Shown piece by piece: positions 19,875 to 34,669 of a stretch of 64,000 nucleotides of DNA (position 1 is its first letter; each line of letters begins with the position of its first letter). The DNA comes from a virus (Duplodnaviria; Caudoviricetes). The DNA is taken from positions 32,001 to 96,000 of IMG/VR virus record IMGVR_UViG_2906610324_000001; one strand, given 5' to 3'. The notes below the pieces were generated by a model. The model had not been told where the DNA came from, made no database searches, and worked only from the letters and a program-made list of their open reading frames with translations. Position numbers and translations under genes: made by a program.

Positions 19875-20143
19875 GATTGAGGGGGCTGAGGCGCTGGCGG
19901 ATACGGTGCCTACCGTTGGATCTCGATTGGGGGGCTACAACGTAGAGTTAATATTCGGGCACCTTACAAGGAATCGGCCGCTGATCAAGGACACCTAAGT
20001 CGAGTTTCCAAAGGTAAGGAAATGTGCCCACAATGACCAAGAAAAGCGGAGATACGGCGGCGAAGAGGCCTGATGGCCGTCCCGTTGGTACGCTTTAGCG
20101 TAGTCCTAGGAAACCGGCGCACAAGCTGGGAGCTTTACGCGCA

Positions 20144-20482: not shown

Positions 20483-20574
20483 CTCAGGATCCTTTCCGGT
20501 TGGGCACATTCGCCCGGAATCGGCTGTAGCCGAGGGGGTAGCACAAAATCGATCGTAGCCGGGAGTCCCGGCGA

Positions 20575-20946
20575 TCAGGTGTAGTCGAGCGGATGGACCT
20601 GGCGCTTGCCGACGGTCATCACCGGCGGGATGACGGCTCCGCGCTTGATCGCAGCCAGCCACTGCGCCTCCGTTCCCGTGAAGCCGGGCGCGGCCTCCAC
20701 ATGGTGGTCGGCCAGCCACTTGGCCAAGGCCTCGGGCGAGGCGCACGGCGGCGAAACCGGTGTGCCGGCGCTGGTGGTCTCGTATAGCTGCCAATGCGTT
20801 CGCTCCGCGGCTGGCCAGGCCGGCATGCTGCGCGCGGGATCGGGCGAGGGCGCATCCGGGCCGGACTCGAGCAGCGGGACATATCGGCCGCCGGAGTTGC
20901 GGGGGTGCTGCCAGTCAGCGGGCACTTGCCTGACGGTTCTTGACAT
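20575..20946 (-). CDS. Conserved hypothetical phage protein
   Basis: R.VR.VP.DWQHP, WQLYETTS.GTP.SP...PE.LA.WL; AAAGG RBS. Confidence 0.75.
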   Translation of the reverse strand: MSRTVRQVPADWQHPRNSGGRYVPLLESGPDAPSPDPARSMPAWPAAERTHWQLYETTSAGTPVSPPCASPEALAKWLADHHVEAAPGFTGTEAQWLAAIKRGAVIPPVMTVGKRQVHPLDYT

Positions 20947-20982
20947 AGCAATCGCCTTTCAAAATAGATCGTATCCGGGGGA

Positions 20983-21255
20983 TCAGAACAGCGAGCCTTG
21001 CGCGGGCGCCGGCGGCTCAGGTTTAAGACGTCCGAGGTGCTCGACCGTCTCGCCTATGATCTGGTCGCGATCATCATCGATCAGCAGCCAACCATCATCG
21101 CCGCCCGCTGGATCGTAAACCACGAAGTCACCGCCCCAACGCTTGAAGATGCGTTCGGCCACCAGGCGCACGGCCGCGGGAACGTCCGTTGCGGCGTCGA
21201 ACCCGGCCCGCGTCACGATCTTGAAGCCGGCCGCCGTCAGTATCTGTTCGGTCAT
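20983..21255 (-). CDS. Hypothetical protein
   Basis: VVYDP....DGWLLI.DD; ends QGSLF (clamp-motif-like). Confidence 0.7.
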   Translation of the reverse strand: MTEQILTAAGFKIVTRAGFDAATDVPAAVRLVAERIFKRWGGDFVVYDPAGGDDGWLLIDDDRDQIIGETVEHLGRLKPEPPAPAQGSLF

Positions 21256-21446
21256 GTTCGCTGGCCCTTCGCTCGTTCAAGGGCCGCTTGCACCTCCCAA
21301 GCCTGATAGATCGCCCCTCGGGCTTCCGTAAGCTTCTCCCGAACCTCTGGCCGCAATCGCTGGTCATTCGAGTCCATGACGCGCGTGAGGCCGTCCAGGA
21401 GCCGGTTATAGGTGTCCCAGTGGAAAGGGTGCTTGCGTGCTGTCAC
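21252..21446 (-). CDS. Hypothetical protein
   Basis: GTG start with GAGGG RBS, coupled to neighbours. Confidence 0.6.
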   Translation of the reverse strand: MTARKHPFHWDTYNRLLDGLTRVMDSNDQRLRPEVREKLTEARGAIYQAWEVQAALERAKGQRT

Positions 21447-21754
21447 CGCCGCGCCCTCGCGGCTGCATGAACCTTGCGGGCGAGCTCGTCGCGGATCGCG
21501 CGGCCAACGTCGGAGTCCTCCATAGCGGTCAGCCAAAGGCGTTCATCGTCCTGGACGACGGCCGCCGCGGCTTCCTCCAGCCTTTTGCCGGCCATGAAGT
21601 GCGGCGCCACGCGGGCAATGAAGGTCTTTTCGTCGTCCGTCAGCTGTCGGCCCGGAGCCGGCGGCGCAGCGAAGGCACCTCCGAGCGCTTCGAGGACGCC
21701 GGCGCGCGCGCCTTCAACGGGACCGGAATAGATTTCAGTCTTCTTGGCCGTCAT
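21443..21754 (-). CDS. Hypothetical protein
   Basis: GGAGG RBS before MTAKKTE. Confidence 0.65.
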   Translation of the reverse strand: MTAKKTEIYSGPVEGARAGVLEALGGAFAAPPAPGRQLTDDEKTFIARVAPHFMAGKRLEEAAAAVVQDDERLWLTAMEDSDVGRAIRDELARKVHAAARARR

Positions 21755-21837
21755 GGGTGAACCTCCGTTCAAATCGGTCGTAGCCGAGGGGGTGATGGGA
21801 AATCGATCGTAGCCGGGGAGGTGGGCGCAGCCGGGGG

Positions 21838-24198
21838 CTATCCCGGCGGCGGCCCATCGATCACGACGAGCGCTGTGTTGACCATGGTACCGGCGGCCTT
21901 GAATGACCCCGCGGGCAGAGGGCGGAATTCCACCGCCATCGGTTCGAGCTTCGCCCGCTGGCGCGGACCGTCGGCGCAGATCGCGACGAGCCGGCCACCA
22001 GGCTTCAAGAACTTCCGGCCATGCGTGATGTGCTTGATGTCGGCGCCGTTCTCAAATGGCGGGTTCATCAAGACAATGTCGAAACGCTCGGCCGGCGGGT
22101 CGAAGTCCAGGAAGTCGCCGCAGTGGACGAACGTGCCGGGGAACGCTGCGCGCAGGTGCTCCGAAAGTTTTGCGTTGATCTCGACCGCCACCACCTGCAG
22201 ACCATCGGCGCAGTTGCGCGCAGCTTCGATCAGTGCGCCCGTTCCGGCGCTCGGCTCCAAGATGCGCTGCCCGGGCCGGATGTCGGCCGCCTCTGCCACG
22301 TCCGCGGCGAGTTCGCCCGATGTCGGGAAGAGCTGAGGCGCAACGACGACTTGCACGCCGCCGCCTTTCAGCATCGCCCGCATGGCCTCGAAACTATCCG
22401 CCGCCGTCGGCGCGGGCAAATCGGCCGTATCCGGGACCGGGGCGAGAACGCGCGGCCGAAGGTCCGCCGGCACGGCCTCGGCCTCGAACGGCACGCCAGC
22501 CAGTCCGCAGAACTGCCGCCAGGCGGTCGCCTCGTCGTCGCACCAATCTGTAACGTGCTGGCCGATGCCAACACGGAATTTGCCGAGTCCGGTGATGATC
22601 TCGGCCCCCGCGCGCTGCGCCTCCGCCTTGGCATCGCCGAGGCGCCGCGGCTCTTCCGCGGGCGCAACCGGGACCAGCGCCGCCACGGCCTCGGGCTCGT
22701 CCTGGGCCTCCCTCTCGCCCGGTGCGCCGATGATCTCGGCGACCGTTGCCAGCATGGCGTCAAGATCAACCGCGGGCGGCGCGACATACTCGGCGACGAA
22801 TTCGGCCGGCTCGGTTGGCTCCGGTGCTGGCGCGATCTTGGGCGGATCGACCCGCTTTGCATCCGTGATGTAAACTTGGACCTTCTTCCAGTATTCACCG
22901 GGCTTCGGCATCTGGCGGACGCGGTGCGCGCTGTGGGTCTCGGTCTCCTTCACTTTGCCGATATAGTGGAAATCCGAGAACTGCGGGCGCGCCTTCCATT
23001 CGGCCTCCGTCATCTCGCGGAATCCTTCGCCGGGATAGTTGCAGATCGGCGGGAGCTTGGCGGCGGACTTCGCCGCGGCGACGTTCTCCGCGCTCGGCGG
23101 CCGATAATCGCTGATGCTCTCCACGCTCCATTGCGCGCGCTTGGAGCGCGAGCCAGTCGGCGCGGTCGTCGTCATGCTGGAAACCGAACCGTTGGCGCCC
23201 TTGTTGACCTTCAGCACGGTAAGCCACTCGTCGCAGCGGCTCGTCTGCACCTGACCGCCGACCGCGAAGGCGAAGCGGTCCGCAAGCGGGTTGGCGGTCG
23301 CCTCCGCTCCGATCTGCTCGGCCAGCATCGCCCGTTCATAGGCCAGCCGGTTGTCATAGTGCGCAATCCAGCGGGCGCGCCGAGGCCCGGAGCGCTCCAG
23401 GCTCGGAATCGCAATCGCGGCGGCCTGCGCGGCGGTGATGACGTTCCCATCAATCGCCGACCAAAGGCCCATTGGCCCCTCATATTGCGAGGCTGGCGGG
23501 TCGCGCGGATAATCGGCCAGCGGAAACGACATCGACCAATAACCGCCGACATTCGCCACGGCCAAGCCGGCCGCGCGCTGCTTCTCGGGGTCATTGATGC
23601 CGGCGACGATTTGCCAGGCCTTCAGCTGCCTTTCGGTCTCCGCTTGCTGGCGCTCCACCTTCCGCTTGTCGGACTCAATGCCCTTGATGCGGCGATGACG
23701 CACCGCCGGCAGTTCCTTGTATTTCGCATGAGCGATTGCGCCGGCCGCGCGCGCAGTCCAATAATTCGAGGTGTCCCAGAGCCTGACCGCCTTGCGCATG
23801 TTGCTGTGTATGCGCTCTTGATCCTTGCGGGCACGCTTCTCGCTGTGGTGCCCAACCAAAATAGGCTGCCCCCCATAGAAGCGCTCGGCGATCTCATCGG
23901 ACACTTTCCGCGCGCTCTCGGCTTCCGCCAAGCGCTTTTCGCTATACCCCTCGAAGCGGTCGGCGCGCTGCTCGGCGCGGTCGGTCAGCGTGGTGTCTTC
24001 GTCGCCGATCTCGCCACACATCTCAATCAGCAAGTCTTCGGCGCCGGGGCTCCAGGTTGGTTTGACGAACAGTTCTTGACGCGGCGCCCACTTGAAGCCG
24101 GCGGCCTTCACGCGCGCGTAATCCTCGGCGTCGAGCCGGTGCGCCGGATAAAGCCGCAGCTTGTTGTCATCGGGCGAATAGGTGGCGGAATGCTGCAT
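21838..24198 (-). CDS. DUF3560-domain protein fused to an N6-adenine methyltransferase
   Basis: ATYSPDDNKLRLY, GFKWAP, GQPILVGHHSEKRARKD (DUF3560); QLFPT, ILEPSAGTG, VLMNPPF (gamma-class MTase). Confidence 0.9.
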   Translation of the reverse strand: MQHSATYSPDDNKLRLYPAHRLDAEDYARVKAAGFKWAPRQELFVKPTWSPGAEDLLIEMCGEIGDEDTTLTDRAEQRADRFEGYSEKRLAEAESARKVSDEIAERFYGGQPILVGHHSEKRARKDQERIHSNMRKAVRLWDTSNYWTARAAGAIAHAKYKELPAVRHRRIKGIESDKRKVERQQAETERQLKAWQIVAGINDPEKQRAAGLAVANVGGYWSMSFPLADYPRDPPASQYEGPMGLWSAIDGNVITAAQAAAIAIPSLERSGPRRARWIAHYDNRLAYERAMLAEQIGAEATANPLADRFAFAVGGQVQTSRCDEWLTVLKVNKGANGSVSSMTTTAPTGSRSKRAQWSVESISDYRPPSAENVAAAKSAAKLPPICNYPGEGFREMTEAEWKARPQFSDFHYIGKVKETETHSAHRVRQMPKPGEYWKKVQVYITDAKRVDPPKIAPAPEPTEPAEFVAEYVAPPAVDLDAMLATVAEIIGAPGEREAQDEPEAVAALVPVAPAEEPRRLGDAKAEAQRAGAEIITGLGKFRVGIGQHVTDWCDDEATAWRQFCGLAGVPFEAEAVPADLRPRVLAPVPDTADLPAPTAADSFEAMRAMLKGGGVQVVVAPQLFPTSGELAADVAEAADIRPGQRILEPSAGTGALIEAARNCADGLQVVAVEINAKLSEHLRAAFPGTFVHCGDFLDFDPPAERFDIVLMNPPFENGADIKHITHGRKFLKPGGRLVAICADGPRQRAKLEPMAVEFRPLPAGSFKAAGTMVNTALVVIDGPPPG

Positions 24199-24243
24199 GT
24201 GTTTTCATCCTTTCAACTTGCGCACAATCGCGCGGGGCTGCTT

Positions 24244-24272
24244 CTCTAATTTGTGTCGGCCGAATCTGTCAA
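24244..24272 (-). promoter_or_regulatory. Putative sigma70 promoter for the DUF3560-MTase operon
   Basis: Minus strand TTGACA-N17-TTAGAG, with GCCGACA in the spacer. Confidence 0.5.
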
Positions 24273-24327
24273 TCGTGTTTGCAAAATCGGCCGTAGCTCG
24301 GGGATGGAAAATCGATCGTAGCCGGGA

Positions 24328-25230
24328 CTAGTGCGCAGTGCCGACGCGCAGGAGTGCCAAGGCGTGATACTCGCTGCCCTCGGCGGCCTTGGCCTTTACG
24401 AATGCCTCGGCCTCGTCGTCGCGGCTCACGCCGTTGCGGACAAATATTGAAGACTCGGCGTCCGCCTGAATCTCAAGCGTGCCGGTGTCGCTGTTCTCGA
24501 ACAGGCCCCATCCTTCCGAGCAAGCGCGGTCATCCTGCCCGATGAATCGCGCCGCGGGCGCAACCGGAAGGCCGGCGGCCGCTCGGCGATAGGCCTCGGC
24601 CGCCTCGTCAGCGTCGGAGACCGCTTCCGCAATCGTGCCGTCCTCGTCGCTGAACATGCCGCGCATCTGGTCAATCTGATGGGTGCAGGCGTCGAGCGCG
24701 CCGGCCAGGTCGCGGGCGATCTGGCGCCAGTCCTGCGCAGGCGCAACCGGGACTGTGCCGCCGACAATCTCCAATTCCTCGACCCGGAAGAAGTCGCCGC
24801 GCATTTCGCCGACGCGCTCAAAATAGGCTTCCGCTAGCTCGTCAGGATCGGCCGGCTTGTCCTCGTCCATCCGTGCGGCCCAATTCTCGGCCGCGATCTC
24901 ACGGCGCCAGGCGCGCGCCGTGTCGCTGTTAGGATAGAGGCGCGTTTCGTCGCCGTGCCGGGTTTCATGGGTAGCCACGGCGAGCGGTGGCAGCGTCACG
25001 GTCCGCTCTTCGATGATGCAGGGGCCGTCAACGGCATCTTCCCATAGCTCGCTGATATTGTCCGCCGTCGCGGCCTCGACCGCGGCCAGGCGCTCGGGGG
25101 TCCGCTTGAGGATGTCGCGCAGGCTCGTGCGGACATATTCCACCGCCTCGGACTGCGTGGCGTGCACCGTGGTTTCGGTCCCGCAGTTGTCGCCCTCAGT
25201 GGTGCAAGTCCAAATCGTGATTGTGCTCAT
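24328..25230 (-). CDS. Acidic hypothetical protein (anti-defence candidate)
   Basis: 300 aa, D/E-rich, AAAGGAG RBS. Confidence 0.75.
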   Translation of the reverse strand: MSTITIWTCTTEGDNCGTETTVHATQSEAVEYVRTSLRDILKRTPERLAAVEAATADNISELWEDAVDGPCIIEERTVTLPPLAVATHETRHGDETRLYPNSDTARAWRREIAAENWAARMDEDKPADPDELAEAYFERVGEMRGDFFRVEELEIVGGTVPVAPAQDWRQIARDLAGALDACTHQIDQMRGMFSDEDGTIAEAVSDADEAAEAYRRAAAGLPVAPAARFIGQDDRACSEGWGLFENSDTGTLEIQADAESSIFVRNGVSRDDEAEAFVKAKAAEGSEYHALALLRVGTAH

Positions 25231-25274
25231 TGTGATGATCTCCTTTCAAAAACAACCGTAGCCAAGGGGCGGAA

Positions 25275-25625
25275 TCAGTCGCGGGCGGGGGGATTGGTGC
25301 GGGTTTCGAGGCCGCGCGCGTGGCGCTCGGCGCCCTCTACGGATTTCAGCGCGCGCGCCACGTAATCCGCTGCATTGTTGGCGTCGGCGATCCGCAGGTG
25401 ATTGCGCGCGGTGCGGATCAACTGCGCGGCAAGCCGGACACGCTCCAGGCGGGAGGCCGGCGGCGTTTCCAATAGCGACAACTGCGCGTCACGCTTCTGC
25501 AGGCGCTCAATCTCGGCCAGCGCCAAGTCAGCTTGTGCGCTCGGGCTGTCGCTGTCCTCGTGCGGAACGTCAACATTCAGCGCGCCAAGAATCGAGTCGG
25601 TAAAGTCGGTGCAGGTGTAAGTCAT
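25275..25625 (-). CDS. Hypothetical protein
   Basis: Repeat A + AAAGG RBS upstream; YVARALKSVEGA.RHA. Confidence 0.75.
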   Translation of the reverse strand: MTYTCTDFTDSILGALNVDVPHEDSDSPSAQADLALAEIERLQKRDAQLSLLETPPASRLERVRLAAQLIRTARNHLRIADANNAADYVARALKSVEGAERHARGLETRTNPPARD

Positions 25626-25765
25626 TTGGCTTTCGTCCTTTCGTTTTGCGCACTATCGCGCAGATGGTGGAGCGACCGCGGCCAGGTGCGCGCGTCATCC
25701 ACCGCGCAAAATCGGCCGTAGTCGGGAGGTGCGCCGCCGGCCGGGAAATCAGCTGGCCCCGGGGG

Positions 25766-26173
25766 TTACTCGGCGAGCTCTTCCAGGGTGACGCCGTCTT
25801 CGGCCGCATACTCGGAAATCAGAGTCAGCGCCCAATCTTCCGCCGCGCCGATCATTTCGCCGTCGCCGCCGCCGTGTTTCGAGTTGACCCTGGCGCATGC
25901 GTCCGCGGTCCATCGTTCAAGGCCGGGAACGTCGCCGAAAAAGTCGCGCGCGCGTTCCAAAACGGATTCCTCCGACAAGCACGCGAGGCCGTAAATCCCG
26001 GCGATGTGCTCGGCGTCGTAAAGCAGCGTCAATCCGTCATCGCGGGTTGAGCGCTGGCGCGCGTAGCGCCAGGCTACGCCGTAGCGTTGCAGCGCGGAGC
26101 GGACGCGCCATCGATACTTTGAAGCCTCGTTAACGAGCGTGGCGAGCGGCGAGCGGGGCAAGGTGAGATGCAT
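25766..26173 (-). CDS. Hypothetical protein
   Basis: AAAGG RBS before MHLTLPRS. Confidence 0.65.
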   Translation of the reverse strand: MHLTLPRSPLATLVNEASKYRWRVRSALQRYGVAWRYARQRSTRDDGLTLLYDAEHIAGIYGLACLSEESVLERARDFFGDVPGLERWTADACARVNSKHGGGDGEMIGAAEDWALTLISEYAAEDGVTLEELAE

Positions 26174-26220
26174 AACGGTTCCTTTGTTCTGTGATGGGAA
26201 ATCGGCCGGCGGCGGGACTG

Positions 26221-26499
26221 TTAGCAATTCACTTCGTGAAAGCCGCGCACACCGTTCAAGACCTTGAAGCCCGGCGGGGAACGATCGCCCTTGCCAATCC
26301 GCATAGTGGCAACCGCCGGCTTTCCCGTTGCCGCCAGGTCCGCGCAGTAGTCCGCGAATGCCTTTTCTGCATCGGCCGCGCGCTTAATCTCGACTTCGCG
26401 CCGTGGGAGCGGGCTTTTGTCCTCTCCGATGCAAAGCGCCACGCTAACGAATGCGCCGTTACGTTCCGCCGCGTAGCTATTCAAGATCAGTTTCGCCAT
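26221..26499 (-). CDS. Hypothetical protein
   Basis: Repeat A + AAAGGAG before MAKLILNS; G.RSPPGF motif. Confidence 0.7.
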   Translation of the reverse strand: MAKLILNSYAAERNGAFVSVALCIGEDKSPLPRREVEIKRAADAEKAFADYCADLAATGKPAVATMRIGKGDRSPPGFKVLNGVRGFHEVNC

Positions 26500-26586
26500 G
26501 TCGTTTAACTCCTTTCGAATTGCGCACCATTGCGCCGAGAAAATCGGCCGCAGCCGAGGGATTGAGGAAATCGGCCGCAACCGGGA

Positions 26587-27000
26587 CTAGGCCGCGGCGG
26601 CTTGCTCGGCCGGCTTTTCGTCGGTCTGCGAAACGTCGAAAACCGGTACCAGGATGAACCGCACCGACTCCGCCGCGGCCTCGGCCGCGGCGCCGTCCGC
26701 GCTCGGCGCCGCTGAGGCCTCGGCCGTTGCGCGCCGGCCGGACGGCGCAAAGATGTAGATTGCGGACTCGCCTTTGCGGACCGCGCGGCCGGCGGCAAGC
26801 CATTGATTGAAGCCGCCCAGCATAGTTGCGCCTTCGCATTGCATCGCCGCCAGCATGTGATTTTTTCCGGATATCGGCCGCGCGTCCGCGGTGAGGATCG
26901 GCGCGCGCTGCAGCCAAAGCGCCTTCTGCTCTTCCGTCATGTTGGCAATCTGGCGCGCCAGTTGCGCGGCCTTTTCTTTGTTGGGATTCGGTTTCCGCAT
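26587..27000 (-). CDS. Stand-alone ArdC N-terminal (ssDNA-binding) domain protein
   Basis: SGKN.ML...Q...AT.LGGFNQWL..GR.VRKGE.AI.IFAP.....F..VPVFDVSQTD. Confidence 0.85.
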   Translation of the reverse strand: MRKPNPNKEKAAQLARQIANMTEEQKALWLQRAPILTADARPISGKNHMLAAMQCEGATMLGGFNQWLAAGRAVRKGESAIYIFAPSGRRATAEASAAPSADGAAAEAAAESVRFILVPVFDVSQTDEKPAEQAAAA

Positions 27001-27070
27001 GGTCTGTTTTCCTTTCCGTTTGCGCACAATCGCGCGTGTTGCATTCCGTGAGGCCGAGGCGCGCCGCGGC

Positions 27071-27268
27071 TTAGTGCAGTTCCCAAGCGCGCAATTCGAC
27101 GCGTGAACGCTTGCCGCGCTTGAATTCGTCGCAGCGGCGCGCGTATTCCTCGGCCTCGGCGGCGGTATCAAACCGCCGAGATAGTTCGCCCCAATTGTTG
27201 AATTCGCAGCGATCAATCAGGCGAAACTTTGCGCCAACGGGCAAGATATCGAATCCATAGGCTCGCAT
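27071..27268 (-). CDS. Hypothetical protein
   Basis: GGAG RBS; F.T.AEAE.YA motif. Confidence 0.55.
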   Translation of the reverse strand: MRAYGFDILPVGAKFRLIDRCEFNNWGELSRRFDTAAEAEEYARRCDEFKRGKRSRVELRAWELH

Positions 27269-27283
27269 TGCTGGCGACTCCGA

Positions 27284-28381
27284 CTAGCTGGCGCGGATCG
27301 CGCAGAAAGGCGCAACCGGGAGGGATGGCCGAGGCGCGCCGAGCGATGACGAGGCCAGGAAGCGCGCGGCGCGGGAAGGCGCAACCGGGATAGGGGCCGC
27401 GGAGTTGGGCGCGGGCGCAACCGGGAGGGCATCGACCGTATCCGGGAGGGAAGCCGCCGCGGTTTCGACGCCGGCGGAATTGTTTGCGACAAGCCGCAAC
27501 CGCGGCGCCTCGGCCTCGGCCTTGGCTGCAGCTGCGCGCGCCTCGGCCTCTTGCTCGGCGCGCCGGCCGGCCTCGGCCTCGGCCTTTGCCGCGGCTTTGG
27601 CCTCGGCCTCGGCCGCGCGAACGACGGCGCGGCGCCGCGCTTCAATTTCCAGCCATGCCATACCGCCGAGGCGCGACCGATAGTCTGCAATCTGCGCGCC
27701 GAGCTCGGCCGCGCGTTCCTCGTCGGCGCCGGCCAAAATCTCGGCCTCGGCCGAGGCAATGAGGTAGTGCCCGCGGTAGAAGTCGGCGCGCGTCAACCCG
27801 CCGGCCTCGGCGGTTTCCGGCAAGGCCGAGGCCTCGGCGGAAAGCGCGACATGATCGAAACGGCCGCGGCGATATTCGGCCGTCCGCGCGTTGCATTCCT
27901 CGGCCGGATATTCGGCGCCGGTAGCGTCACAGATGGCAGAAACGATGGACGGGACCGCGACACAATCGGAACCGATTGCCGAGGCTTTCCCGAATTCCCG
28001 CGCGACCCGCGCGCGGTAGAAGGCGAAGGCAACGCGCAAGCCGCGGCCGATATTGACCGGCTTGCCAGGCAGTGAAACGGCTGGCGCGCGTACCACGGCG
28101 CCGCATACAAACGTCACAACGATGATAGGCGACTTGCCTAGCTTTTTCGTCGCGCTTGCCGGGATGACATAATCCGCCCATGGATCCGCCGCGCCGTCCG
28201 GGATATTGGCCGCGCCGGATCCGGCTTTCTGCGCCGGCAATGCGAGGCGCAGCAAATCGGCAATGCCGCGCCAGTTCGCGCCGTCGGGATTCGCGGTCGC
28301 GTTGTCATAGGCGAGGATCGCCAGCGCGCGCCGTTCCGTTGCCTTTGCGGCCTTGGCCGCGATCAAATCAACCTGTTGCAT
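27284..28381 (-). CDS. Ala-rich hypothetical protein with coiled-coil tail
   Basis: Repeat A + AAAGG before MQQVDLI. Confidence 0.7.
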   Translation of the reverse strand: MQQVDLIAAKAAKATERRALAILAYDNATANPDGANWRGIADLLRLALPAQKAGSGAANIPDGAADPWADYVIPASATKKLGKSPIIVVTFVCGAVVRAPAVSLPGKPVNIGRGLRVAFAFYRARVAREFGKASAIGSDCVAVPSIVSAICDATGAEYPAEECNARTAEYRRGRFDHVALSAEASALPETAEAGGLTRADFYRGHYLIASAEAEILAGADEERAAELGAQIADYRSRLGGMAWLEIEARRRAVVRAAEAEAKAAAKAEAEAGRRAEQEAEARAAAAKAEAEAPRLRLVANNSAGVETAAASLPDTVDALPVAPAPNSAAPIPVAPSRAARFLASSSLGAPRPSLPVAPFCAIRAS

Positions 28382-28476
28382 GGTCCATTGTCCTTTCTGA
28401 TTTGCGCACGATTGCGCCGAGAATTGAGGGAAGGCCGAGGCCAGGTTAGGCCGTAGCTTTGGCGCGGCGCCGCGCG

Positions 28477-28746
28477 TCAATCGCGGCGCGTATCACTTTT
28501 CTTGAACCGCGGCGCATAACGGCCGTTGAATGCACGCAATTCAGAAAAGGCGATATCGGCCGCGGCCTTGGCAATCCGGTATCGCGGATCGAATTTAATT
28601 CGGTCCGGAGTCAGTCCCATCGGACCGCGCGCCGGAATCCCCATTTCGGCCGCAAGGCCTTCTGTCACGGCGCCGAGGCGCGCGCCGGCCTCTTTGATCC
28701 GGTTATCCAACTCGGCCGCGGCGGCTTGGAATGCTGCAAAATCCAT
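28477..28746 (-). CDS. Hypothetical protein
   Basis: GPMGLTPD..K..P.Y..AK......F..LR.FN motif. Confidence 0.7.
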   Translation of the reverse strand: MDFAAFQAAAAELDNRIKEAGARLGAVTEGLAAEMGIPARGPMGLTPDRIKFDPRYRIAKAAADIAFSELRAFNGRYAPRFKKSDTRRD

Positions 28747-28754
28747 CGGTGCAC

Positions 28755-28943
28755 CTAGACGCTTTCGTCAAAGCGCGCGGCCTCAAAGTCGCGGCTTGCC
28801 TGTTCTGCCTCGGCGCCGGTAAGCATGCGGCGGCTTGTCGGATAATAGAACGCGCGCGTTCCGACCGGGATGAAATGCCCGTTGCGGTCATTGGCCGGAT
28901 ATTTGGTAATGATCCATCGCGGATCGCCGCCATAGCGTGCCAT
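28755..28943 (-). CDS. Hypothetical protein
   Basis: Repeat A + AAAGG before MARYGGDPRWI. Confidence 0.7.
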   Translation of the reverse strand: MARYGGDPRWIITKYPANDRNGHFIPVGTRAFYYPTSRRMLTGAEAEQASRDFEAARFDESV

Positions 28944-29008
28944 TGTAGTCTGTCCTTTCCAGTTTGCGCACAATCGCGCGGGAGACAAATTCGACGGCCG
29001 AGGCCGAG

Positions 29009-29149
29009 CTATTCCAGCATGTCCGCAATGAACCGGACCGCGGCCGGATATCGGCAGAAACTGCGCAGCAATGCGACGATTCCGCGCGCCGTGTAGTAAC
29101 CCGCCGGGATACCGTGCAAGTTATCCGGAATGAAGGTTTCGCGGTCCAT
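29009..29149 (-). CDS. Small hypothetical protein
   Basis: AGGA RBS; ends AVRFIADMLE. Confidence 0.55.
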   Translation of the reverse strand: MDRETFIPDNLHGIPAGYYTARGIVALLRSFCRYPAAVRFIADMLE

Positions 29150-29153
29150 TGGC

Positions 29154-29492
29154 CTAGTATCCTGCAGCCTCGGCGGAATAGTCGCGCTGGCCAGTCTCGG
29201 CGGTTTGCCAGTCCGGAAAGCGCGCGCCGTTTTCGGTATCGTTGTAACCCGCCGAAAGCCTATCGGCCGGGCAGGTGCAAACGCCATCGCGGGTTATGCG
29301 TCCAACGCAGTCCGCGCCATCGTTGCACCATTCGTTAGTCACGGTTTGCCCGTCGAAAGAAAAGATATTGGACTCGCGCGTCCATCCTTCGTCCGTTCTG
29401 GCGCCGTGCGAATGGTGCAACGTTTGGCCAGTCCGCAACGCGATACGGACAAGGCCGGATTTGTGATAGTGCCAAAAGCGCGCTGTTTTCAT
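29154..29492 (-). CDS. Hypothetical protein
   Basis: GAGGG RBS; ARFW...TDEGW...DC.GR....QRDYSAEAAGY. Confidence 0.7.
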   Translation of the reverse strand: MKTARFWHYHKSGLVRIALRTGQTLHHSHGARTDEGWTRESNIFSFDGQTVTNEWCNDGADCVGRITRDGVCTCPADRLSAGYNDTENGARFPDWQTAETGQRDYSAEAAGY

Positions 29493-29502
29493 GCGGTATC
29501 CC

Positions 29503-29832
29503 TCACGGAAGGCGGTTAAAGACGGAATGATAGGCCGAGGCCTCGGCGATGCACTCGCGCGCGGCCTCAAGATTGCGAGCGCGCGCCATGGGCGAGTTTT
29601 TCGCGGCGCGCCGATAGTAAGCCGCCCAGTGCAAAGCCTCGGCCGCAAGCGCGCGGCGCGGCCGGCAAGATAGCCGCGACGTCCGCAAGGCAACCGGACC
29701 GGCCGCGCGTTCTGCGCGCGCCGTGAATTCCGTTCCGTTGCAGACAATCCAGAACGTTGCCACATTGTGGCGCCGGCCGCGCGCCTCGGCGCGTAGCGCG
29801 GAAATGGTGCGGCGGAATGCATCGCGGTTCAT
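29503..29832 (-). CDS. Hypothetical basic protein
   Basis: GGAG RBS, ATGA coupling. Confidence 0.55.
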   Translation of the reverse strand: MNRDAFRRTISALRAEARGRRHNVATFWIVCNGTEFTARAERAAGPVALRTSRLSCRPRRALAAEALHWAAYYRRAAKNSPMARARNLEAARECIAEASAYHSVFNRLP

Positions 29833-30233
29833 GCTGCGCGCTCCAGTTCGCAAGCCGCGGTCCATCCGGTTGCGCGATCATAGGAGGCCGCGCGCGCGAT
29901 CATTGGCGGCTTGCGCAATTCGTCATCTGGCGGAATCACGCCATAGCGTTCCGGCGCGGCGTCAAGTTTCGCCATGGCTGCAGCATGCTCGGCCGCGCGC
30001 CACACATTGAAGGCCGCGACGATATGCGCCGGTAGCGGTTCAGCGTATCGGACAAGCATGCCGATTCCGGTTCGCATGGCGCGGCGGACATCATCGCCAT
30101 TTGCTATCGATAGCTCATAGTCTGAAACGGAATGACGGATGCTAACCTCATAGCTCTCGGTTTCATCCGTGACGCGATAGTAGACGGTCCCCATGTAGGA
30201 ACATTTCCAAGTGAATTGCGGCTTGCGTGTCAT
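29829..30233 (-). CDS. Hypothetical protein
   Basis: AAAGG RBS; degenerate repeat A at ~30251. Confidence 0.65.
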   Translation of the reverse strand: MTRKPQFTWKCSYMGTVYYRVTDETESYEVSIRHSVSDYELSIANGDDVRRAMRTGIGMLVRYAEPLPAHIVAAFNVWRAAEHAAAMAKLDAAPERYGVIPPDDELRKPPMIARAASYDRATGWTAACELERAA

Positions 30234-30260
30234 CGTCAAGGCCTTTCGGGTTGCGCGCAG

Positions 30261-30704
30261 TTAGATGACGCGAACGGTTGCGCCGGCCGGCAAATGAACC
30301 GCGCAACCGCCGTGAGAGTCGCGGCGCTTGATCTCCAGATGGACCGGCAGCCATCCGGTTGACTTCCCGACATAGAACCGGGACCGCGCGCCATCTGGCG
30401 CGGTGACTTCTACGCGCTTCCCTTCGAGGCCGATTAGTTGCGGCGCCAGCTGCGCGGGACAACGCGACCTAGTCGCGGCCGCATGATTGGCGCCGGCCTT
30501 CATTGTCGCGCGGTAGACTCGATAATGCTGGATTGTGCCGGGCTTGAATGCGCCGAGGCCTGGAGGGACCGCGGCCGAGGGAAGCCAGGCCGCGACGTCG
30601 CGCGCCCATCTCTCGGCGACACTGAAGCCAACGCAAGTATATCCGGCGCCGGATCGCAGAACATAAAGGCCTTGCTCGGCATTGATGGAATGAAAGTCAC
30701 TCAT
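30261..30704 (-). CDS. Conserved hypothetical phage protein
   Basis: Repeat A upstream; L.PQLIGLEG.RVEV.....RFYVGKSTGW.P.HLEI.RR.S.GG. Confidence 0.75.
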   Translation of the reverse strand: MSDFHSINAEQGLYVLRSGAGYTCVGFSVAERWARDVAAWLPSAAVPPGLGAFKPGTIQHYRVYRATMKAGANHAAATRSRCPAQLAPQLIGLEGKRVEVTAPDGARSRFYVGKSTGWLPVHLEIKRRDSHGGCAVHLPAGATVRVI

Positions 30705-30798
30705 CTCGGTTTGTCCTATTCGGTTTGCGCACAATCGCGCTTTGGTCCGCTTTGGCGTTCCGTTGTGCGGCGCGCCTCGGCGCCGCACCGTCGGAAAG

Positions 30799-31215
30799 TC
30801 AGTTGGAGGGAACGAAATTCATTCCCGTGCGGTCCAATGCCTCAAGTTTGAGGAAAGCGCGGACACGTTCCAAAGCATCCGGCCAAAGAATGACGCCGCC
30901 GCTTGTCGCCGGATCGTCGCTCCAATTGAGTCCGGCCAGAACGAAAGCCGGGCAAAAATCCCAATCGAATTGGACTTGATCGCGCTCGGAGTCCGTAAGG
31001 GATTGCCAAACGGTTTCGCAGTCTGGAGCGAGCCGGATCATGATATGGCGCATTTCGTATGCGCCCCATCCGTCACGGTATTGGTCAACTAGTTCCGCGG
31101 CGGCTTTGATTTCCGCGGGACGATCGTTGCGCCATTCCGGGTTGCTGGCGTCAATACAGGCTTCCCAGAGGCAAAGCGCGGCCTCGGCAATAAGCGGATT
31201 CAACTCGGTTTGCAT
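30799..31215 (-). CDS. Acidic hypothetical protein
   Basis: GAGGAG RBS; EAALCLWEA, FDWDFCP.F. Confidence 0.7.
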   Translation of the reverse strand: MQTELNPLIAEAALCLWEACIDASNPEWRNDRPAEIKAAAELVDQYRDGWGAYEMRHIMIRLAPDCETVWQSLTDSERDQVQFDWDFCPAFVLAGLNWSDDPATSGGVILWPDALERVRAFLKLEALDRTGMNFVPSN

Positions 31216-31227
31216 CTCGGGCGCTCC

Positions 31228-31332
31228 TCAAAGGCACGAATTCAGAAAAGCGCGCTTGCCGTCGCGCACCGCGGCGCGCCGAGTCCGCTTGTCGCTCGGC
31301 CGGCGGTCGGAATCATGCTTGCGATACTTCAT
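31228..31332 (-). CDS. 34-aa basic peptide (absent from ORF track)
   Basis: Repeat A + AAAGG, then MKYRKHDSDRRPSDKRTRRAAVRDGKRAFLNSCL*. Confidence 0.6.
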   Translation of the reverse strand: MKYRKHDSDRRPSDKRTRRAAVRDGKRAFLNSCL

Positions 31333-31424
31333 GGCCTTTTTCCTTTTCGAATTGCGCACAATTGCGCGGTTTCGGCGGTTTGCCGGTTATGCCGTGACGT
31401 GCACGGCATAGGCTGCAAATCGCG

Positions 31425-31664
31425 TTAGTTGATACGCTCGCAAGCGCCGGTTTCAGCGTTCCAGCGTATCAGCATATCGTTAGCTCGGATCGAAAGGCCG
31501 CGGGACATGCGGACGTCGCGCGGCGCCGGCCGGCCGGTTTCGTGAAACCATTGGCCGAGGCGGAATGCAATGTGCGTTGCGCTACTCCACAAGTGCGGAT
31601 TGGCCGAGGCCGGCGCGGCATAGCCGGCCGAGGCATAGGCGGTTAAGTCATCGGGCTTTGCCAT
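31425..31664 (-). CDS. Hypothetical protein
   Basis: GAGGAG RBS before MAKPDDL; NPHLWSS....AF.LG. Confidence 0.65.
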   Translation of the reverse strand: MAKPDDLTAYASAGYAAPASANPHLWSSATHIAFRLGQWFHETGRPAPRDVRMSRGLSIRANDMLIRWNAETGACERIN

Positions 31665-31677
31665 TGCGGCGCGCTCC

Positions 31678-31758
31678 TCAAAGGCAGCATACGAAAATGA
31701 CAAACGTTCCGACTAAAGCCGCCGCGCAGAACAGAACAAAATCAAGTGTATCGTCCAT
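31678..31758 (-). CDS. 26-aa hydrophobic peptide (absent from ORF track)
   Basis: Repeat A + AAAGG, then MDDTLDFVLFCAAALVGTFVIFVCCL*. Confidence 0.55.
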   Translation of the reverse strand: MDDTLDFVLFCAAALVGTFVIFVCCL

Positions 31759-31803
31759 TGGTCTAGCCTTTCGATTTGCGCACAATCGCGCGGTGGAAAA
31801 GTG

Positions 31804-32016
31804 TTAGCGGTTGCTGATGACTCGGAATCGGCTTTCGTGAACGCAAAGCCTTCCGCCATCCGCGAATTTGACGATGTGCCAGCCCGGCTGGATTGGTCCG
31901 CTTGCCGCGGTCCATCGCGCGATTTTCGCGACCTCTGGCGCGACGCTGGGAAAGCCGCCAATCGCTGGCGTGCCATGCAATTCAATGCGCGATCCGGTTT
32001 TGAGGGATTGAGACAT
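31804..32016 (-). CDS. Small SH3-like hypothetical protein
   Basis: GAGG RBS; GWHIVKFADGGRLCVHESRF. Confidence 0.65.
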   Translation of the reverse strand: MSQSLKTGSRIELHGTPAIGGFPSVAPEVAKIARWTAASGPIQPGWHIVKFADGGRLCVHESRFRVISNR

Positions 32017-32026
32017 GCTTGGCCTC

Positions 32027-32191
32027 TTAGCGGCGGTTGAGGCGCGCGCGGCGCCGGATCAGAAGGCGGCGAGGCTTTGCCGGAATGCAGTGGATTGCGA
32101 AGAGGACGAGCCAGCACGCGGAATAGATCGCTGCAAACGTGGCCAGAGTGAAAGCCGGGTTAGCGATGCAAAAGGAAATGAAGTCGTTCAT
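32027..32191 (-). CDS. Small membrane protein
   Basis: Repeat A + AAAGG before MNDFISFC; one TM and a basic tail. Confidence 0.55.
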   Translation of the reverse strand: MNDFISFCIANPAFTLATFAAIYSACWLVLFAIHCIPAKPRRLLIRRRARLNRR

Positions 32192-32238
32192 TTCGCCGGG
32201 CCTTTGAAGTTGCGCACAATCGCGCCGTGGTGACGCGT

Positions 32239-32267
32239 ACATGCGCAGATGTCGGCGCGGCCGTCAA
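32239..32267 (-). promoter_or_regulatory. Putative sigma70 promoter heading the minus-strand cluster
   Basis: Minus strand TTGACG-N17-GCATGT with GCCGACA in the spacer and an AT-rich upstream tract. Confidence 0.45.
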
Positions 32268-32333
32268 TGGGTAAAACGCAAAATTGCGAGAAAAAGTTGT
32301 ATTTGTTCGGCTGAGTATCGCAATATTGAGACG

Positions 32334-32657
32334 TTAGCCGTCTAGTGCAGCATTGATCCGGCCCAGCAATTCGGCGCGCTGGCGCCCGGTATCCGGTCTA
32401 ATTCCTGCAATGATCGCCCAAATCTGCCGTGCGATGTCAGGCCCAGCACCATTGGCCCGATACTGCGCCAGCGTGTTCTCGGACACGTAGAGCAGGCGCG
32501 CAGCTGCGGCATTCGAGAGGCTTGCGCCTTCCTGCCAGGCCCGGAATTCAGCCGCGCTGATTCTGAGTGAAACATCAGCGGAAGAGAAAGCCCGGCTTGC
32601 TGGCTTGCGCTTGGCCATTGGCTTGCTGGTCTTTGTGTCGGTCATTGGACGCCTCAA
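32334..32657 (-). CDS. HTH transcription regulator
   Basis: SAAEFRAWQ....LSNAAAARLL.VSENTLAQY. Confidence 0.75.
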   Translation of the reverse strand: MRRPMTDTKTSKPMAKRKPASRAFSSADVSLRISAAEFRAWQEGASLSNAAAARLLYVSENTLAQYRANGAGPDIARQIWAIIAGIRPDTGRQRAELLGRINAALDG

Positions 32658-32874
32658 GATTGAGTTATGCCGCAGTCATCCAACCCGCAACTATCACGGA
32701 ATTGAGTTGCTGCGGGCGCCGTCCCTGCTGTCATCCACCGTCAAGCGGTGGAACAGCGATTTGACAGCCGACTCAATTTGCGATTCAGAGCAAGCACGGT
32801 GACGCATTGTCGCTGCAATCCAACGCCCGCCAGGTCGCACCGCCTTGGCGGGTTTCGCATGTCAGGGGCACGGC

Positions 32875-33045
32875 ATGGGCGAGGTAGTCGAGCTATCGCC
32901 CGACGCGCCGCGCCGTGCCCGCCGACAGCGGCGCCAGCCTGCAGTCATCATTGTGTTGCCACTGGTTCGGGTCGAGCGCTGCATCAGCGCCGCCGACGCA
33001 TGGGATGCAATGCCAAGCGATAGCGCGCCGCATGGTGCGGCATAG
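32875..33045 (+). CDS. Small hypothetical protein
   Basis: AGGGG RBS; MGEVVEL...AVIIVLP.VRVER. Confidence 0.45.
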   Translation: MGEVVELSPDAPRRARRQRRQPAVIIVLPLVRVERCISAADAWDAMPSDSAPHGAA

Positions 33046-33264
33046 CCGGGCGGATCGGCGTGCGCCTGCCACGACAAGCGGACGTCACCACAAGGCGAGC
33101 TAGTCGAGAGAGAAAGGCGGGCGGTTGCCGCGCGCGGCGCGGCGCCAGCGGCGCCAGCGTATCCGCTGACACTATTCGGCCAGGCTGAACCACGGCCGCA
33201 CCAATCCGCCGCCACCGCAACCGACACGCCAGCCCGCGCCAAGCCAAGCCAGCGCCTCGAGGCC

Positions 33265-33345
33265 AAGGGGTATGGGGTCGGAAAGTCTAGGAACCGACGG
33301 GACCCCCTACCGCACGGGGGCTCATTTGCACAATTTTTTCTGCCG
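33265..33345 (+). other. Putative cos (packaging initiation) region
   Basis: GGGGTATGGGGTCGGAAAGTC...ACCGC...ATTTTTT immediately upstream of the terS start; G-run pattern resembles that of HNH/cos HK97-like phages. Confidence 0.5.
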
Positions 33346-33375
33346 CGACCGAATTTTTCAAGGTGAAGCGTCGAA

Positions 33376-33508
33376 ATGACCGAAAAACCGGAAAACGGCG
33401 GATCTGGAGAAAATCCGGCGGCCAAGCCGAAATCGGCGCCACGGAAAAAGGCCAGGAAGCCAGCGAAGCGGAAGGCGAAGGCCCGCGCAAGCAAGGGGGG
33501 CCGCGGAC
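33376..33508 (+). pseudogene. Terminase small subunit, N-terminal stub
   Basis: AAGG RBS; K/R-rich MTEKPE...KGGRGR, then runs out of frame into terL sequence. Confidence 0.55.
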
Positions 33509-34669
33509 GTGGTCGGCGGCAAGAAAGCCGCCTTCGTCCTGGTCGACGAGCTCTGGATCTTCGGCAAGCGTGCCAACGCCGCTGCGATGTTTCAGGAAGC
33601 GACCGGCGGTCTCGTATCGAGGAAAGAGGGCTTCGTCGTCTATCTCTCGACGCAGTCAGACGCGCCGCCGGCCGGTGTGTTCAAGGAGAAGCTCGACTAT
33701 TTCCGCGACGTCCGTGACGGCACCATTGTGGATCCGACCAGCTTCGGGATGCTCTACGAATTCCCGGAGGCCATAATCAAGGCGAAGGCCTACCTCGACC
33801 CGTCGAACTGGCGGATCACGAACCCGAATCTCGATCTTTCCGTCAGCACCGAATGGCTGCTGAGCGAACTGACCAAGGCCCAGCGCGGCAACGAGGACGC
33901 GCTCCGGACCTTCCTAGCCAAGCATCTCAACGTCGAGATCGGCATGAACCTCCGGGCCAATCGTTGGCCTGGCGCAACGCATTGGCAGAAGCGCGGCGAT
34001 CAGAAGATCACGCTGCGCTACCTGTTCAAGGTCTGCGACGTCATCGTGCCCGGTATAGACGGCGGCGGGCTCGACGACCTCTTTGGGCTCAGCTTGCTGG
34101 GCCGGCACAAGATCACGAAGGACTGGCTCCTCTGGGTGCATGCGTGGTGCCACCGCGGCGTGCTCGATCTGCGGCACTCGATCGCACCGCGCCTGCTGCA
34201 ATTCGAAAAGGAGGGCGATCTCACGATCGTCGATGACGAACTCGAGGACATCTCGAAGATCGTTCGCATCATCAAGTTGGTGAAGAAGAAGCGGCTCCTG
34301 GGCGGTGTTTCGGTCGACCCTGCCGGCCTCGGCGAATTCGTTGACGCCTTGGCCGACAAGGAAATCGACATCACGGTCGAGAACAAGCTGCTCATCGGCG
34401 CCCCGCAGGGCTTCGGCATGATGAACAGCATCAAGACCTGCGAACGCAAGCTGGTCAAAGGAACGCTGCGGCACGCGCCGAGTCCGATGATGGATTGGTG
34501 CGTCAGCAATCTGAAGATCGAGCCGACTGCCACGGCAATCAGGGCAACGAAGCAGACCGCGGGCGATGCCAAGATCGACCCCGCGATTGCGATGTTCAAT
34601 TCAGCCTACCTGATGGCGACCAATCCAAAGGCTCATGGCCACGCGAAGCCGAGGGCCATGGTTCTTTGA
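33500..34669 (+). pseudogene. terL: Terminase large subunit, C-terminal ~2/3 only (Walker A missing)
   Basis: Begins at VVGGKKAAFVLVDEL (Walker B); YLSTQS, ITNPNL, GIDGGGLDDL, KIDP; no upstream in-frame ATPase N-terminus. Confidence 0.85.

Follow-up and report, generated by a model that had tools for sequence, protein, structure and literature searches.

Why would a temperate phage place one small hairpin at the head of one transcription unit after another? This question is raised by a stretch of viral DNA of 64,000 nucleotides (nt), positions 32,001 to 96,000 of the IMG/VR record IMGVR_UViG_2906610324_000001 (the whole provirus record is 121,323 bp), which we refer to as the window. On its minus strand lie repeated copies of a short inverted repeat, each just upstream of a Shine-Dalgarno (SD) sequence. 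On comparative grounds, we rate the hairpin that this repeat would form as a real, conserved and structured cis-element that appears to constitute a new family of the protein-operator kind of hairpin in 5' untranslated regions (5' UTRs). We lean, with modest conviction, towards the view that it serves in cis as a post-transcriptional operator and is recognised by a trans-acting factor, for which a microprotein encoded in the same array is the best candidate partner.

The window was searched for the exact pattern GCGCRATNGTGCGC, with 100 dinucleotide-preserving shuffles of the window, searched with up to one mismatch allowed, as controls. We observed 10 exact matches, all on the minus strand, and tolerance of one mismatch added none. 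The shuffled windows gave a mean of 1.88 matches and a maximum of 5 at that tolerance, and 10 matches were reached in 0 of 100. The ten positions are those at which an earlier note on this DNA had placed the hairpin, and no exact match to GCGCRATNGTGCGC lies outside the array, either in the rest of the window or in the rest of the 121,323-bp record. Each copy is followed by AA, 4-5 variable nt, an AAAGG(A) SD sequence, about 7 nt and ATG, and 19-22 nt separate the 3' end of the stem from the ATG; the 18-21 nt given previously are the same series counted one base shorter. Among the ten exact copies, position R is G in seven and A in three, and the third loop base takes all four values. An eleventh copy, GGGCGAATGTGCCCAA, was found with a search for the design only (paired arms, A6, G9 and AA). 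It has the layout AA-N4-AAAGGA-N7-ATG, and its GGGC/GCCC stem represents a compensatory C2G/G13C change from a C-G to a G-C pair. Thus, the earlier count of ten holds for exact copies and falls short as a total, having missed this covarying copy. A covariance model built on the family scores the eleven copies at 31.8-41.5 bits, and the next-best match in the window reaches 17.5 bits (Table 1). The hairpin precedes the first gene of each transcription unit, and the genes that follow closely within a unit are without it. The motif is start-associated in that every copy lies before an ATG, and only unit-first genes, not every gene of the array, have one.

The hairpin is found in the equivalent place in at least 15 related (pro)phages. 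Proviruses of 94-132 kb in IMG/VR carry clusters of exact 16-mers, without exception on the strand that encodes the corresponding array, and the motif-bearing relatives include genomes whose terminases are as little as 54% (genome G002) and 40% (G004) identical to that of the window, as well as a 94,146-bp genome with direct terminal repeats (G009). Over ten related loci, a general motif pattern gave 92 matches on the array strand versus 1 on the opposite strand, and across relatives the stem ends 18-23 nt before the ATG in 82 of 89 copies. When the covariance model was run on ~100 loci (1.15 Mb) of other phages with related terminases, no convincing match was obtained, the best being 18.6 bits. 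An exact 16-mer scan of 185,579 species genomes returned, among the matches listed, single ones scattered across phyla that are probably due to chance, and the covariance model gave convincing double matches among bacterial genomes only in Bradyrhizobium embrapense SEMIA 6208. We therefore reject the reading of the motif as a common host repeat unlinked to starts, a possibility that the earlier note had raised against its own proposal. No Rfam family reaches its gathering score in the 64-kb window, and at E<=1 over positions 20000-33000 there are only two sub-threshold matches to small nucleolar RNA models, at 21053-21102, that are unrelated to the motif. A literature search over roughly 8.4 million papers and preprints, confined to the exact motif, found no description of it, which, together with the Rfam result, agrees with the earlier remark that the motif was not recognised as described.

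Is the repeat selected as a structure or as a sequence? We examined 108 distinct copies from 14 (pro)phages, with 500 shuffles as the control, and found that 97.6% of stem cells are paired. Pair 4/11 is C-G in all 108 copies; pairs 2/13 (C-G in 87, G-C in 21) and 3/12 (G-C in 102, C-G in 3, U-A in 3) are never broken; pair 1/14 is G-C in 94, U-A in 3, G-U in 2, U-G in 2 and something else in 7; and pair 5/10 is A-U in 53, G-U in 48, G-C in 1 and something else in 6. Cells changed on both sides number 33, versus 5.5 ± 2.0 in the shuffles, a count that 0 of 500 reach. Likewise, the covariation score of 0.303 is equalled by none of the 500 shuffles, and displacing the 3' partner by 1-3 columns lowers it to 0.002-0.082. 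Compensatory substitutions, which keep the pairs as in a structured cis-regulatory RNA, are seen in three pairs (1/14, 2/13 and 3/12). In a scan that made no use of pairing, the four outer pairs were all present in 84 of 89 matches, and three near-misses had lost only the terminal pair. Approximately 52 cells are G-U or U-G, which pair on the mRNA-sense strand only, the antisense strand having A-C at these places.

The stem hardly varies within the close clade, where the changes seen are C14 to U, giving G-U (twice), G1/C14 to U/G (twice) and C2/G13 to G/C, along with a change of U10 to C that is seen only alongside G5. The claim that R always pairs with U survives as a strong tendency and fails as an absolute rule, position 5 being C or T in some relatives (6 of the 108 copies). 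Four distant contigs, which were reached through a microprotein profile search alone and then fetched, carry the stems GGGCA/TGCCC, GGCCA/TGGCC, GGTCA/TGACC, TGGCA/TGCCA, TCGCA/TGCGA, TGCCA/TGGCA and GCTCA/TGAGC before array genes, with the A-U-N-G loop and the closing A-U kept; the gene strand of these contigs has 25 14-mers with A6, G9, T10 and five pairs, versus 6 on the other. Position A6 is invariant in 109 of 109 aligned copies, and G9 and T10 (U10 in RNA) are each kept in at least 90%; the conserved loop core is C-R-A-U-N-G-U-G, and the loop is AUNG, or RAUNGU if the fifth pair is open. The stem is also kept in copies of altered loop length, namely the 12-nt variant GCGC-AATT-GCGC at the ortholog of copy 3 in G002 and the 13-nt variants GCGCA-TAC-TGCGC and GCGC-ATACG-GCGC in G004. 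The flanks are asymmetric, with a preference for CC at -2 and -1 and usually AA after the 3' arm. The hairpin on its own has a folding energy of -5.3 to -6.0 kcal/mol, and pair probabilities in most native contexts are 0.6-0.98. The double-sided stem changes, the G-U pairs confined to the sense strand and the stem-keeping loop variants point to structural selection on the sense strand, and in a double-stranded DNA (dsDNA) phage RNA is the simplest meaning of such selection. This supports the view that the motif is a sense-strand RNA hairpin, presumably transcribed, rather than a dsDNA operator or a promoter, and the 5-bp stem with an AUNG loop in RNA that the earlier note had proposed is supported by the same three lines of evidence, which are stronger than those available to it.

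Given a conserved loop on a free stem, a fixed distance to the SD sequence and a presence on about eleven mRNAs of one temporal module, the pattern is that of an RNA operator for a trans-acting factor. Under the operator reading, the hairpin would be a transcribed element of the 5' UTR with a stem of 4-5 bp of free sequence, an A-U or G-U closing pair and an AUNG loop. It would stand 4-7 nt upstream of an extended SD sequence with its 3' end ~19-22 nt before the start codon, which is near the expected 5' edge of the 30S footprint, and it would mark the first cistron of about eleven units in an early, anti-restriction-type array beside the terminase gene. A trans-acting factor would recognise the conserved loop irrespective of the stem, and in doing so would set the translation and/or the mRNA lifetime of the whole gene set together. 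The T4 RegA regulon, the coat-protein operators of RNA phages and N-boxB offer precedents for such control. Of the roles offered in the earlier note, namely a translation-initiation or processing element, a protein-binding site or a recombination joint, all stay candidates, and the conserved loop on variable stems favours recognition by a trans-acting factor. The data establish the copies, their fixed placement, the covariation, the strand asymmetry, the confinement to one module and one phage clade, and the co-occurrence with the microprotein; we infer transcription of the element, its binding by a factor, the identity of that factor and the direction of its effect.

The best candidate for this factor would be a 30-34-amino-acid (aa) arginine-rich microprotein encoded inside the array. 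Members of its family share invariant R18, R19, G25, K26 and L30 and a nearly invariant N31, and relatives are located, for example, at L128:6164-6265, L131:1898-1993 and L379:3311-3400 in the related loci. The microprotein is the only array protein found in every motif-bearing genome (15 of 15 genomes or contigs), and it is absent from 226 other phage loci (2.35 Mb). A profile of the family compared with 1.8 billion representative proteins matched only ~10 small clusters, all in this phage group. Its codons vary synonymously, indicating constraint at the level of the protein. The hairpin stands before the microprotein's own gene in 13 of the 14 genomes checked and also in locus L118, which was examined afterwards; the microprotein would thus be autoregulated. 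AlphaFold predicts two short helices, with the arginine-rich core, which holds the invariant RR, helical, at a predicted local distance difference test score of 69, a low-confidence model that is not evidence of RNA binding, and the look-alikes retrieved from an atlas had scores of at most 0.80 and were uninformative. A terminator-like hairpin with a U-tract, at 31250-31267, overlaps the codons of the microprotein's conserved C-terminus. We also entertain, only tentatively, a more specific proposal, a peptide-RNA regulon in which the microprotein would read the AUNG loop of about ten identical 5'-UTR hairpins, its own included, and would time or boost anti-defence genes that probably enter the cell first. 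The microprotein could then be an adaptor that links the hairpin-bearing mRNAs to the ribosome, RNA polymerase or an RNase via its invariant C-terminal AFLNS tail.

Several observations weigh against the operator reading. An RNA-binding domain is recognisable in none of the array proteins, and neither the microprotein nor the other small array proteins have a Pfam match even at E<=5, the N family included. The microprotein is the best candidate ligand of the hairpin on circumstantial grounds, because all motif-bearing phages belong to one lineage and any lineage-specific gene would co-occur with the motif. For the four most distant contigs, a copy had to form at least four of five pairs to be accepted, so part of the covariation count is inflated. 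The GCGC stem is nearly invariant within the Bradyrhizobium-type clade, which leaves room for sequence-specific recognition of DNA or for homogenisation by recombination. Finally, the promoters that would place copies 1 and 10 near the 5' ends of transcripts were seen by eye only and were not flagged by a consensus scanner.

Readings in which the motif acts as DNA have to be weighed against the same evidence. As a 14-bp inverted repeat of the stoperator type, it would be bound by the 103-aa or the 112-aa helix-turn-helix (HTH) protein of the phage, and the array would be silenced in the lysogen or shut off late in infection. The half-site centres are ~10 bp apart, a typical spacing for HTH dimers, the array is flanked by HTH-like genes, and mycobacteriophage L5, as cited in PMC3203893, provides a precedent of many oriented intergenic repressor sites. 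However, the arms change jointly to new complementary bases, which a protein reading DNA would not select. Normal operators also show the opposite of the distribution seen here, in which it is the arms that differ from phage to phage and the centre and flanks, both asymmetric, that are conserved. About half of the copies have a G-T asymmetry, the 12- and 13-nt variants alter the half-site spacing and yet are kept at orthologous positions, the fixed SD distance has no rationale, and the HTH protein at the array head is only 36-53% identical in most relatives that share an identical motif and is undetected in G009. We consider such an operator improbable, and slightly more so a phage-class-specific promoter in which RATNGT would be a -10-like hexamer, with a GC-rich discriminator and a start just before the SD sequence. 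A repeated, oriented motif ~30 nt upstream of start codons at unit heads would suit a promoter, as would the match, in our own reading, of A6, T7 and T10 to A2, T3 and T6 of the -10 hexamer. But nothing is conserved from -60 to -9, where the information content is about zero and there is no -35 element, the stem covariation is left without a reason, and the 12-nt variant destroys the putative hexamer and is retained nonetheless. Neither a sigma factor nor a single-subunit T7-type RNA polymerase was detected in the record, where the families PF04542, PF08281 and PF00940 have no match (a weak point for PF00940, which is blank in controls as well). In addition, sigma-70-like promoters seem to sit upstream of some copies. 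Reading by eye, we found TTGACR ~36-43 nt upstream of the first copy in several genomes and of copy 10, the hexamer being TTGACG ~42 nt upstream of copy 1 and a conserved TTGACA ~39 nt upstream of copy 10, and promoters of the form TTGACR-N16-18 would start transcription ~3-10 nt before these two copies. The hairpin itself is thus probably not a promoter. A recombination joint, in which a short shared sequence serves cassette swaps as in T4-type PeSLs or, more remotely, integron attC, is as improbable as the promoter. In comparisons between genomes, homology is found on one side of the motif only in 10 copy pairs versus on both sides in 54, a single combination of upstream context and hairpin stands before a different gene in each of four phages, and there is a half-motif scar (Table 1). 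Sixteen nt are nevertheless short for homologous exchange, phage mosaic joints fall at gene boundaries anyway, and covariation, a conserved loop on divergent stems and the fixed SD spacing all go unexplained; no integron-type integrase was seen near the array, although no search was aimed at one. The breakpoints at the motif, which lend some support to the joint proposed in the earlier note, suggest that the motif is incidentally a point of cassette exchange, and this role is most likely a by-product of another function. The open reading frame (ORF) at 29829-30233, whose product starts MTRKPQF, has the half hairpin in the window and a full hairpin at its ortholog in genome G003 (L130:5236 onward), so the half-motif is a trace left where a cassette was gained or lost at the motif. 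An attC-like element of the integron kind was rejected, the hairpin being far too small and without core and inverse-core boxes. A methylation or restriction site, considered since each copy has two GCGC sites and the phage encodes several methyltransferases, was rejected because distant relatives carry GGGC, GGCC, GGTC, GCTC or TGCC instead of GCGC.

Other readings accept the RNA hairpin and assign it a different role. As a boxB in an N/nut-like antitermination system, it would be bound on nascent RNA by the microprotein, which would aid read-through of weak terminator-like elements between units. The 5-bp stem, the small conserved loop and the co-occurring arginine-rich peptide, whose core KRTRRAA resembles by eye the arginine-rich motifs of N-type proteins, fit this scheme, and short terminator-like hairpins with U-tracts do lie between units, for example at 26544-26557 and 31250-31267. 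Processive antitermination, however, has no need of eleven SD-tied sites; lambda uses two nut sites. There is no boxA-like conserved flank, the loop is not the GNRA-like pentaloop of boxB, the 30-34-aa peptide has no counterpart of the NusA- and RNA polymerase-binding parts of N and no match to the Pfam N family, and terminator-like elements are not enriched in a scan (18 found versus 15.4 ± 3.9 in shuffles). We judge antitermination unlikely, if a shade less so than the DNA-level readings. The main rival of the operator reading is a purely cis-acting 5'-end protection or processing hairpin of the ompA type, which would work without a dedicated binding protein and for which a second repeat, motif B, would provide an RNase E-type cut site. 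Standing a few nt from the 5' end of each primary or processed transcript, it would shield the downstream cistron against decay that depends on the 5' end. This we think doubtful but a good deal more plausible than the alternatives above. The sigma-70-like starts predicted ~3-10 nt upstream of copies 1 and 10 would put the hairpin at a 5' end, the stem sequence is free in distant relatives, and motif B can lie adjacent, 5-8 nt upstream, in the order stop-B-(B)-A-SD-ATG (A being the hairpin) and always on the same strand. RNase E prefers RN|WUU, a preference that the GAUUU within motif B fits. On the other hand, 5'-end protection does not explain why A6, G9, U10 and the 3' AA are conserved across phages whose terminases are only 40% identical, or why the stem is held at only 4-5 bp. 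Many copies are without an adjacent motif B, and cleavage there is a supposition.

Motif B is itself a conserved repeat of the array. It has the consensus CTACGRYCGATTT after a C-rich run, is oriented on the minus strand and is found at 21771-26578 of the window, with examples at 26541-26551, 26568-26578, 25709-25719, 24284-24294, 22418-22428 and 21771-21781. Its copies closely follow stop codons and are often paired in tandem at a spacing of 23-37 nt. They precede either the hairpin, by 5-8 nt, or an SD sequence, immediately; the motif contains GAUUU. Motif B is kept in all relatives, as TTACGGCTGATT in G004 and G009, and it extends past the hairpin zone. One copy is in frame within the ORF of the 786-aa DUF3560-methyltransferase protein, between its domains, and may be a trace of gene fusion. 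We rejected a reading of motif B as a conserved hairpin or terminator, since only some copies fold (TCGGC-TGCG-GCCGA followed by a U-tract). Most copies lose the closing pair, and those of G004 and G009 have no upstream complement, so motif B is conserved as a sequence and not as a structure.

The genome that carries the array is that of a siphovirus-type (pro)phage of the ~95-130 kb class. Its plus strand encodes DnaB, a primase-like protein, a beta clamp and methyltransferases at 1-16 kb and, from 33.5 kb, a terminase nuclease domain, portal, ClpP-type protease, HK97-type capsid, tail tube, tape measure and tail tip. A minus-strand cluster separates these two blocks; it spans ~32.6 to 17.5 kb and is transcribed in the direction that leads away from the terminase gene. 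Its products include a 103-aa head protein with a weak HTH, several peptides of 26-62 aa, a phrog_10759 protein, a protein of the anti-restriction type with an ArdC N-terminal domain (ArdC-N) and the 786-aa protein with DUF3560 and methyltransferase domains. A megablast of window positions 21000-33000 against 50,697 phage records gave no match, and all relatives of the capsid protein are less than 46% identical to it. The host is probably Bradyrhizobium, as suggested by an identical copy of the ArdC-N protein encoded on the 8.4-Mb chromosome CP083721.1 together with the two strong covariance-model matches in B. embrapense SEMIA 6208. The 112-aa protein (MSPPRF...) encoded after copy 11 is kept in most relatives and appears by eye to have a Cro/XRE-type HTH, with no Pfam hit. 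At the far end of the cluster, within 17539-19874 on the minus strand, are genes for a 493-aa AriA-like ABC ATPase (AAA_15/AAA_21; PADLOC AriA, E=2e-23) and a 285-aa AriB-like DUF4435 protein (PADLOC AriB, E=3e-16), a prophage-borne anti-phage defence pair of the PARIS type that sits in an island of low G+C content (0.52-0.57 versus 0.63 for the window). The terminase ORF, at 33509-34669 on the plus strand, encodes 386 aa that match the nuclease domain only, and the open frame in relatives is 559-588 aa long, so the ATPase part may begin further upstream (32700-33500) or be interrupted.

Table 1. Copies of the hairpin and associated genes in the array, in window coordinates.
Feature	Position	Core 14-mer	Strand	Score (bits)	Gene that follows	Remarks
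Hairpin copy 1	32210-32225	32212-32225	-	36.5	ORF 32027-32191	GCGCG-ATTG-TGCGC-AA; product of 54 aa, hydrophobic with Arg-rich tail
Hairpin copy 2	31776-31791	31778-31791	-	41.5	ORF 31678-31758	26-aa hydrophobic peptide, kept in relatives
Hairpin copy 3	31352-31367	31354-31367	-	40.2	Microprotein gene	A-U closing pair
Hairpin copy 4	30725-30740	30727-30740	-	31.8	ORF 30261-30704	147 aa, phrog_10759
Half-motif GCGCGCAA	30251-30258		-	16	ORF 29829-30233	Followed by SD and ATG
Hairpin copy 5	28964-28979	28966-28979	-	36.9	ORF 28755-28943	62 aa
Hairpin copy 6	28402-28417	28404-28417	-	32.8	ORF 27284-28381	365 aa, no family match
Hairpin copy 7	27020-27035	27022-27035	-	40.7	ORF 26587-27000	137 aa, ArdC N-terminal domain
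Hairpin copy 8	26520-26535	26522-26535	-	34	ORF 26221-26499	92 aa; motif B 5 nt upstream of hairpin
Hairpin copy 9	25646-25661	25648-25661	-	34.8	ORF 25275-25625, then ORF 24328-25230	116 aa (first ORF)
Hairpin copy 10	24218-24233	24220-24233	-	36.8	ORF 21838-24198	786 aa, DUF3560 + methyltransferase
Hairpin copy 11	20500-20515		-	33.3	ORF 20144-20482	GGGCG-AATG-TGCCC-AA; 112 aa
Weak-HTH protein gene	32334-32645		-			103 aa; array head; no hairpin before gene; candidate DNA-binding factor in the operator on dsDNA
Arg-rich microprotein gene	31228-31332		-			34 aa; product MKYRKHDSDRRPSDKRTRRAAVRDGKRAFLNSCL; hairpin copy 3 before gene; candidate trans-acting partner

The gene set that the element would govern is an anti-restriction-type array beside the packaging site of a large temperate phage from a nitrogen-fixing symbiont lineage, and with its ArdC-N and DUF3560-methyltransferase proteins it resembles the anti-defence leading regions of conjugative plasmids. 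Repeated start-associated motifs have been known in phages for more than a decade without a mechanism, and the comparative data presented here favour a structured RNA with recognition of the protein type. If the hairpin is an operator, it would offer a handle on how phages schedule their counter-defence genes, and a compact and portable 16-nt expression tag with a candidate 34-aa ligand. If the microprotein does read it, no dedicated translational regulator known in a dsDNA phage would be smaller, and the two would form a new RNA-peptide recognition pair.

Among known systems, the start-associated sequences (SAS) of Cluster K mycobacteriophages are comparable in distribution. The SAS is a 13-bp asymmetric sequence, GGGATAGGAGCCC, that includes the SD sequence and lies 3-7 bp from the start codon; the function of the SAS, which has an extended form (ESAS), is unknown, with a role in translation having been proposed (Pope et al. 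2011, PMC3203893). Both systems have short repeats, in 11-19 copies and one orientation, that are confined to the non-structural region of temperate siphovirus genomes, stand immediately before the start codons of genes from unrelated families and are kept across subclusters; here there are 11 minus-strand copies within 20.5-32.2 kb, before genes that share no family. The hairpin, GCGCRATNGTGCGCAA, differs in being separate from the SD sequence, with its 3' end 19-22 nt from the ATG, and the two have no sequence similarity. The inverted repeats of the ESAS are 17 bp in length and depart from symmetry in ways that give RNA pairing no support, for which reason their authors prefer to see them as DNA-binding sites (PMC3203893). 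In contrast to these and to the L5 stoperators, variation in the hairpin keeps pairing, with three compensated pairs and sense-only G-U. The PeSL elements of T4-like phages combine a sigma-70 early promoter with a terminator stem-loop (Comeau et al. 2014, PMC4122927). They are likewise repeated intergenic composites of hyperplastic regions with small, variable early genes, at mosaic junctions, whereas the present repeat has no promoter consensus and no U-tract after the hairpin.

Stabilising stem-loops of the ompA type need no specific loop sequence, and they are not known as a repeated family whose loops are conserved. The boxB element shares with the hairpin a variable 5-bp stem, a small conserved loop and a place in early transcripts, and it is read by an arginine-rich peptide, such as co-occurs here. 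It has a GNRA-like pentaloop, comes together with a boxA, is present in two copies per genome and is not tied to the position of an SD sequence, and N is a protein of ~100 aa with regions that contact NusA and RNA polymerase; here, by contrast, there is an AUNG loop without boxA, in 11 SD-tied copies, with a peptide of 30-34 aa. The coat-protein operators of MS2 and PP7 are small hairpins by the ribosome-binding site with few essential loop bases and a free stem. Each is the single operator of its genome, includes the start codon and is bound by a dimer of the capsid protein, whereas the present hairpin has many copies in a dsDNA phage and overlaps neither the SD sequence nor the AUG. The hairpin belongs to none of the RegA, RNA-phage coat-protein operator or N-boxB families. 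A search for RegA (Translat_reg, PF01818) gave no match in the 121-kb record, a result of little weight since control genomes were equally blank. The sites of RegA in T4 are unstructured, A+U-rich and overlap the AUG (Uzan and Miller 2010, PMC3014915), unlike a G+C-rich structured hairpin upstream of the SD sequence. Even so, RegA, one small protein that represses ~30 prereplicative mRNAs at their translation-initiation regions (PMC3014915), comes closest as a working analogy for the joint control of a large set of early genes.

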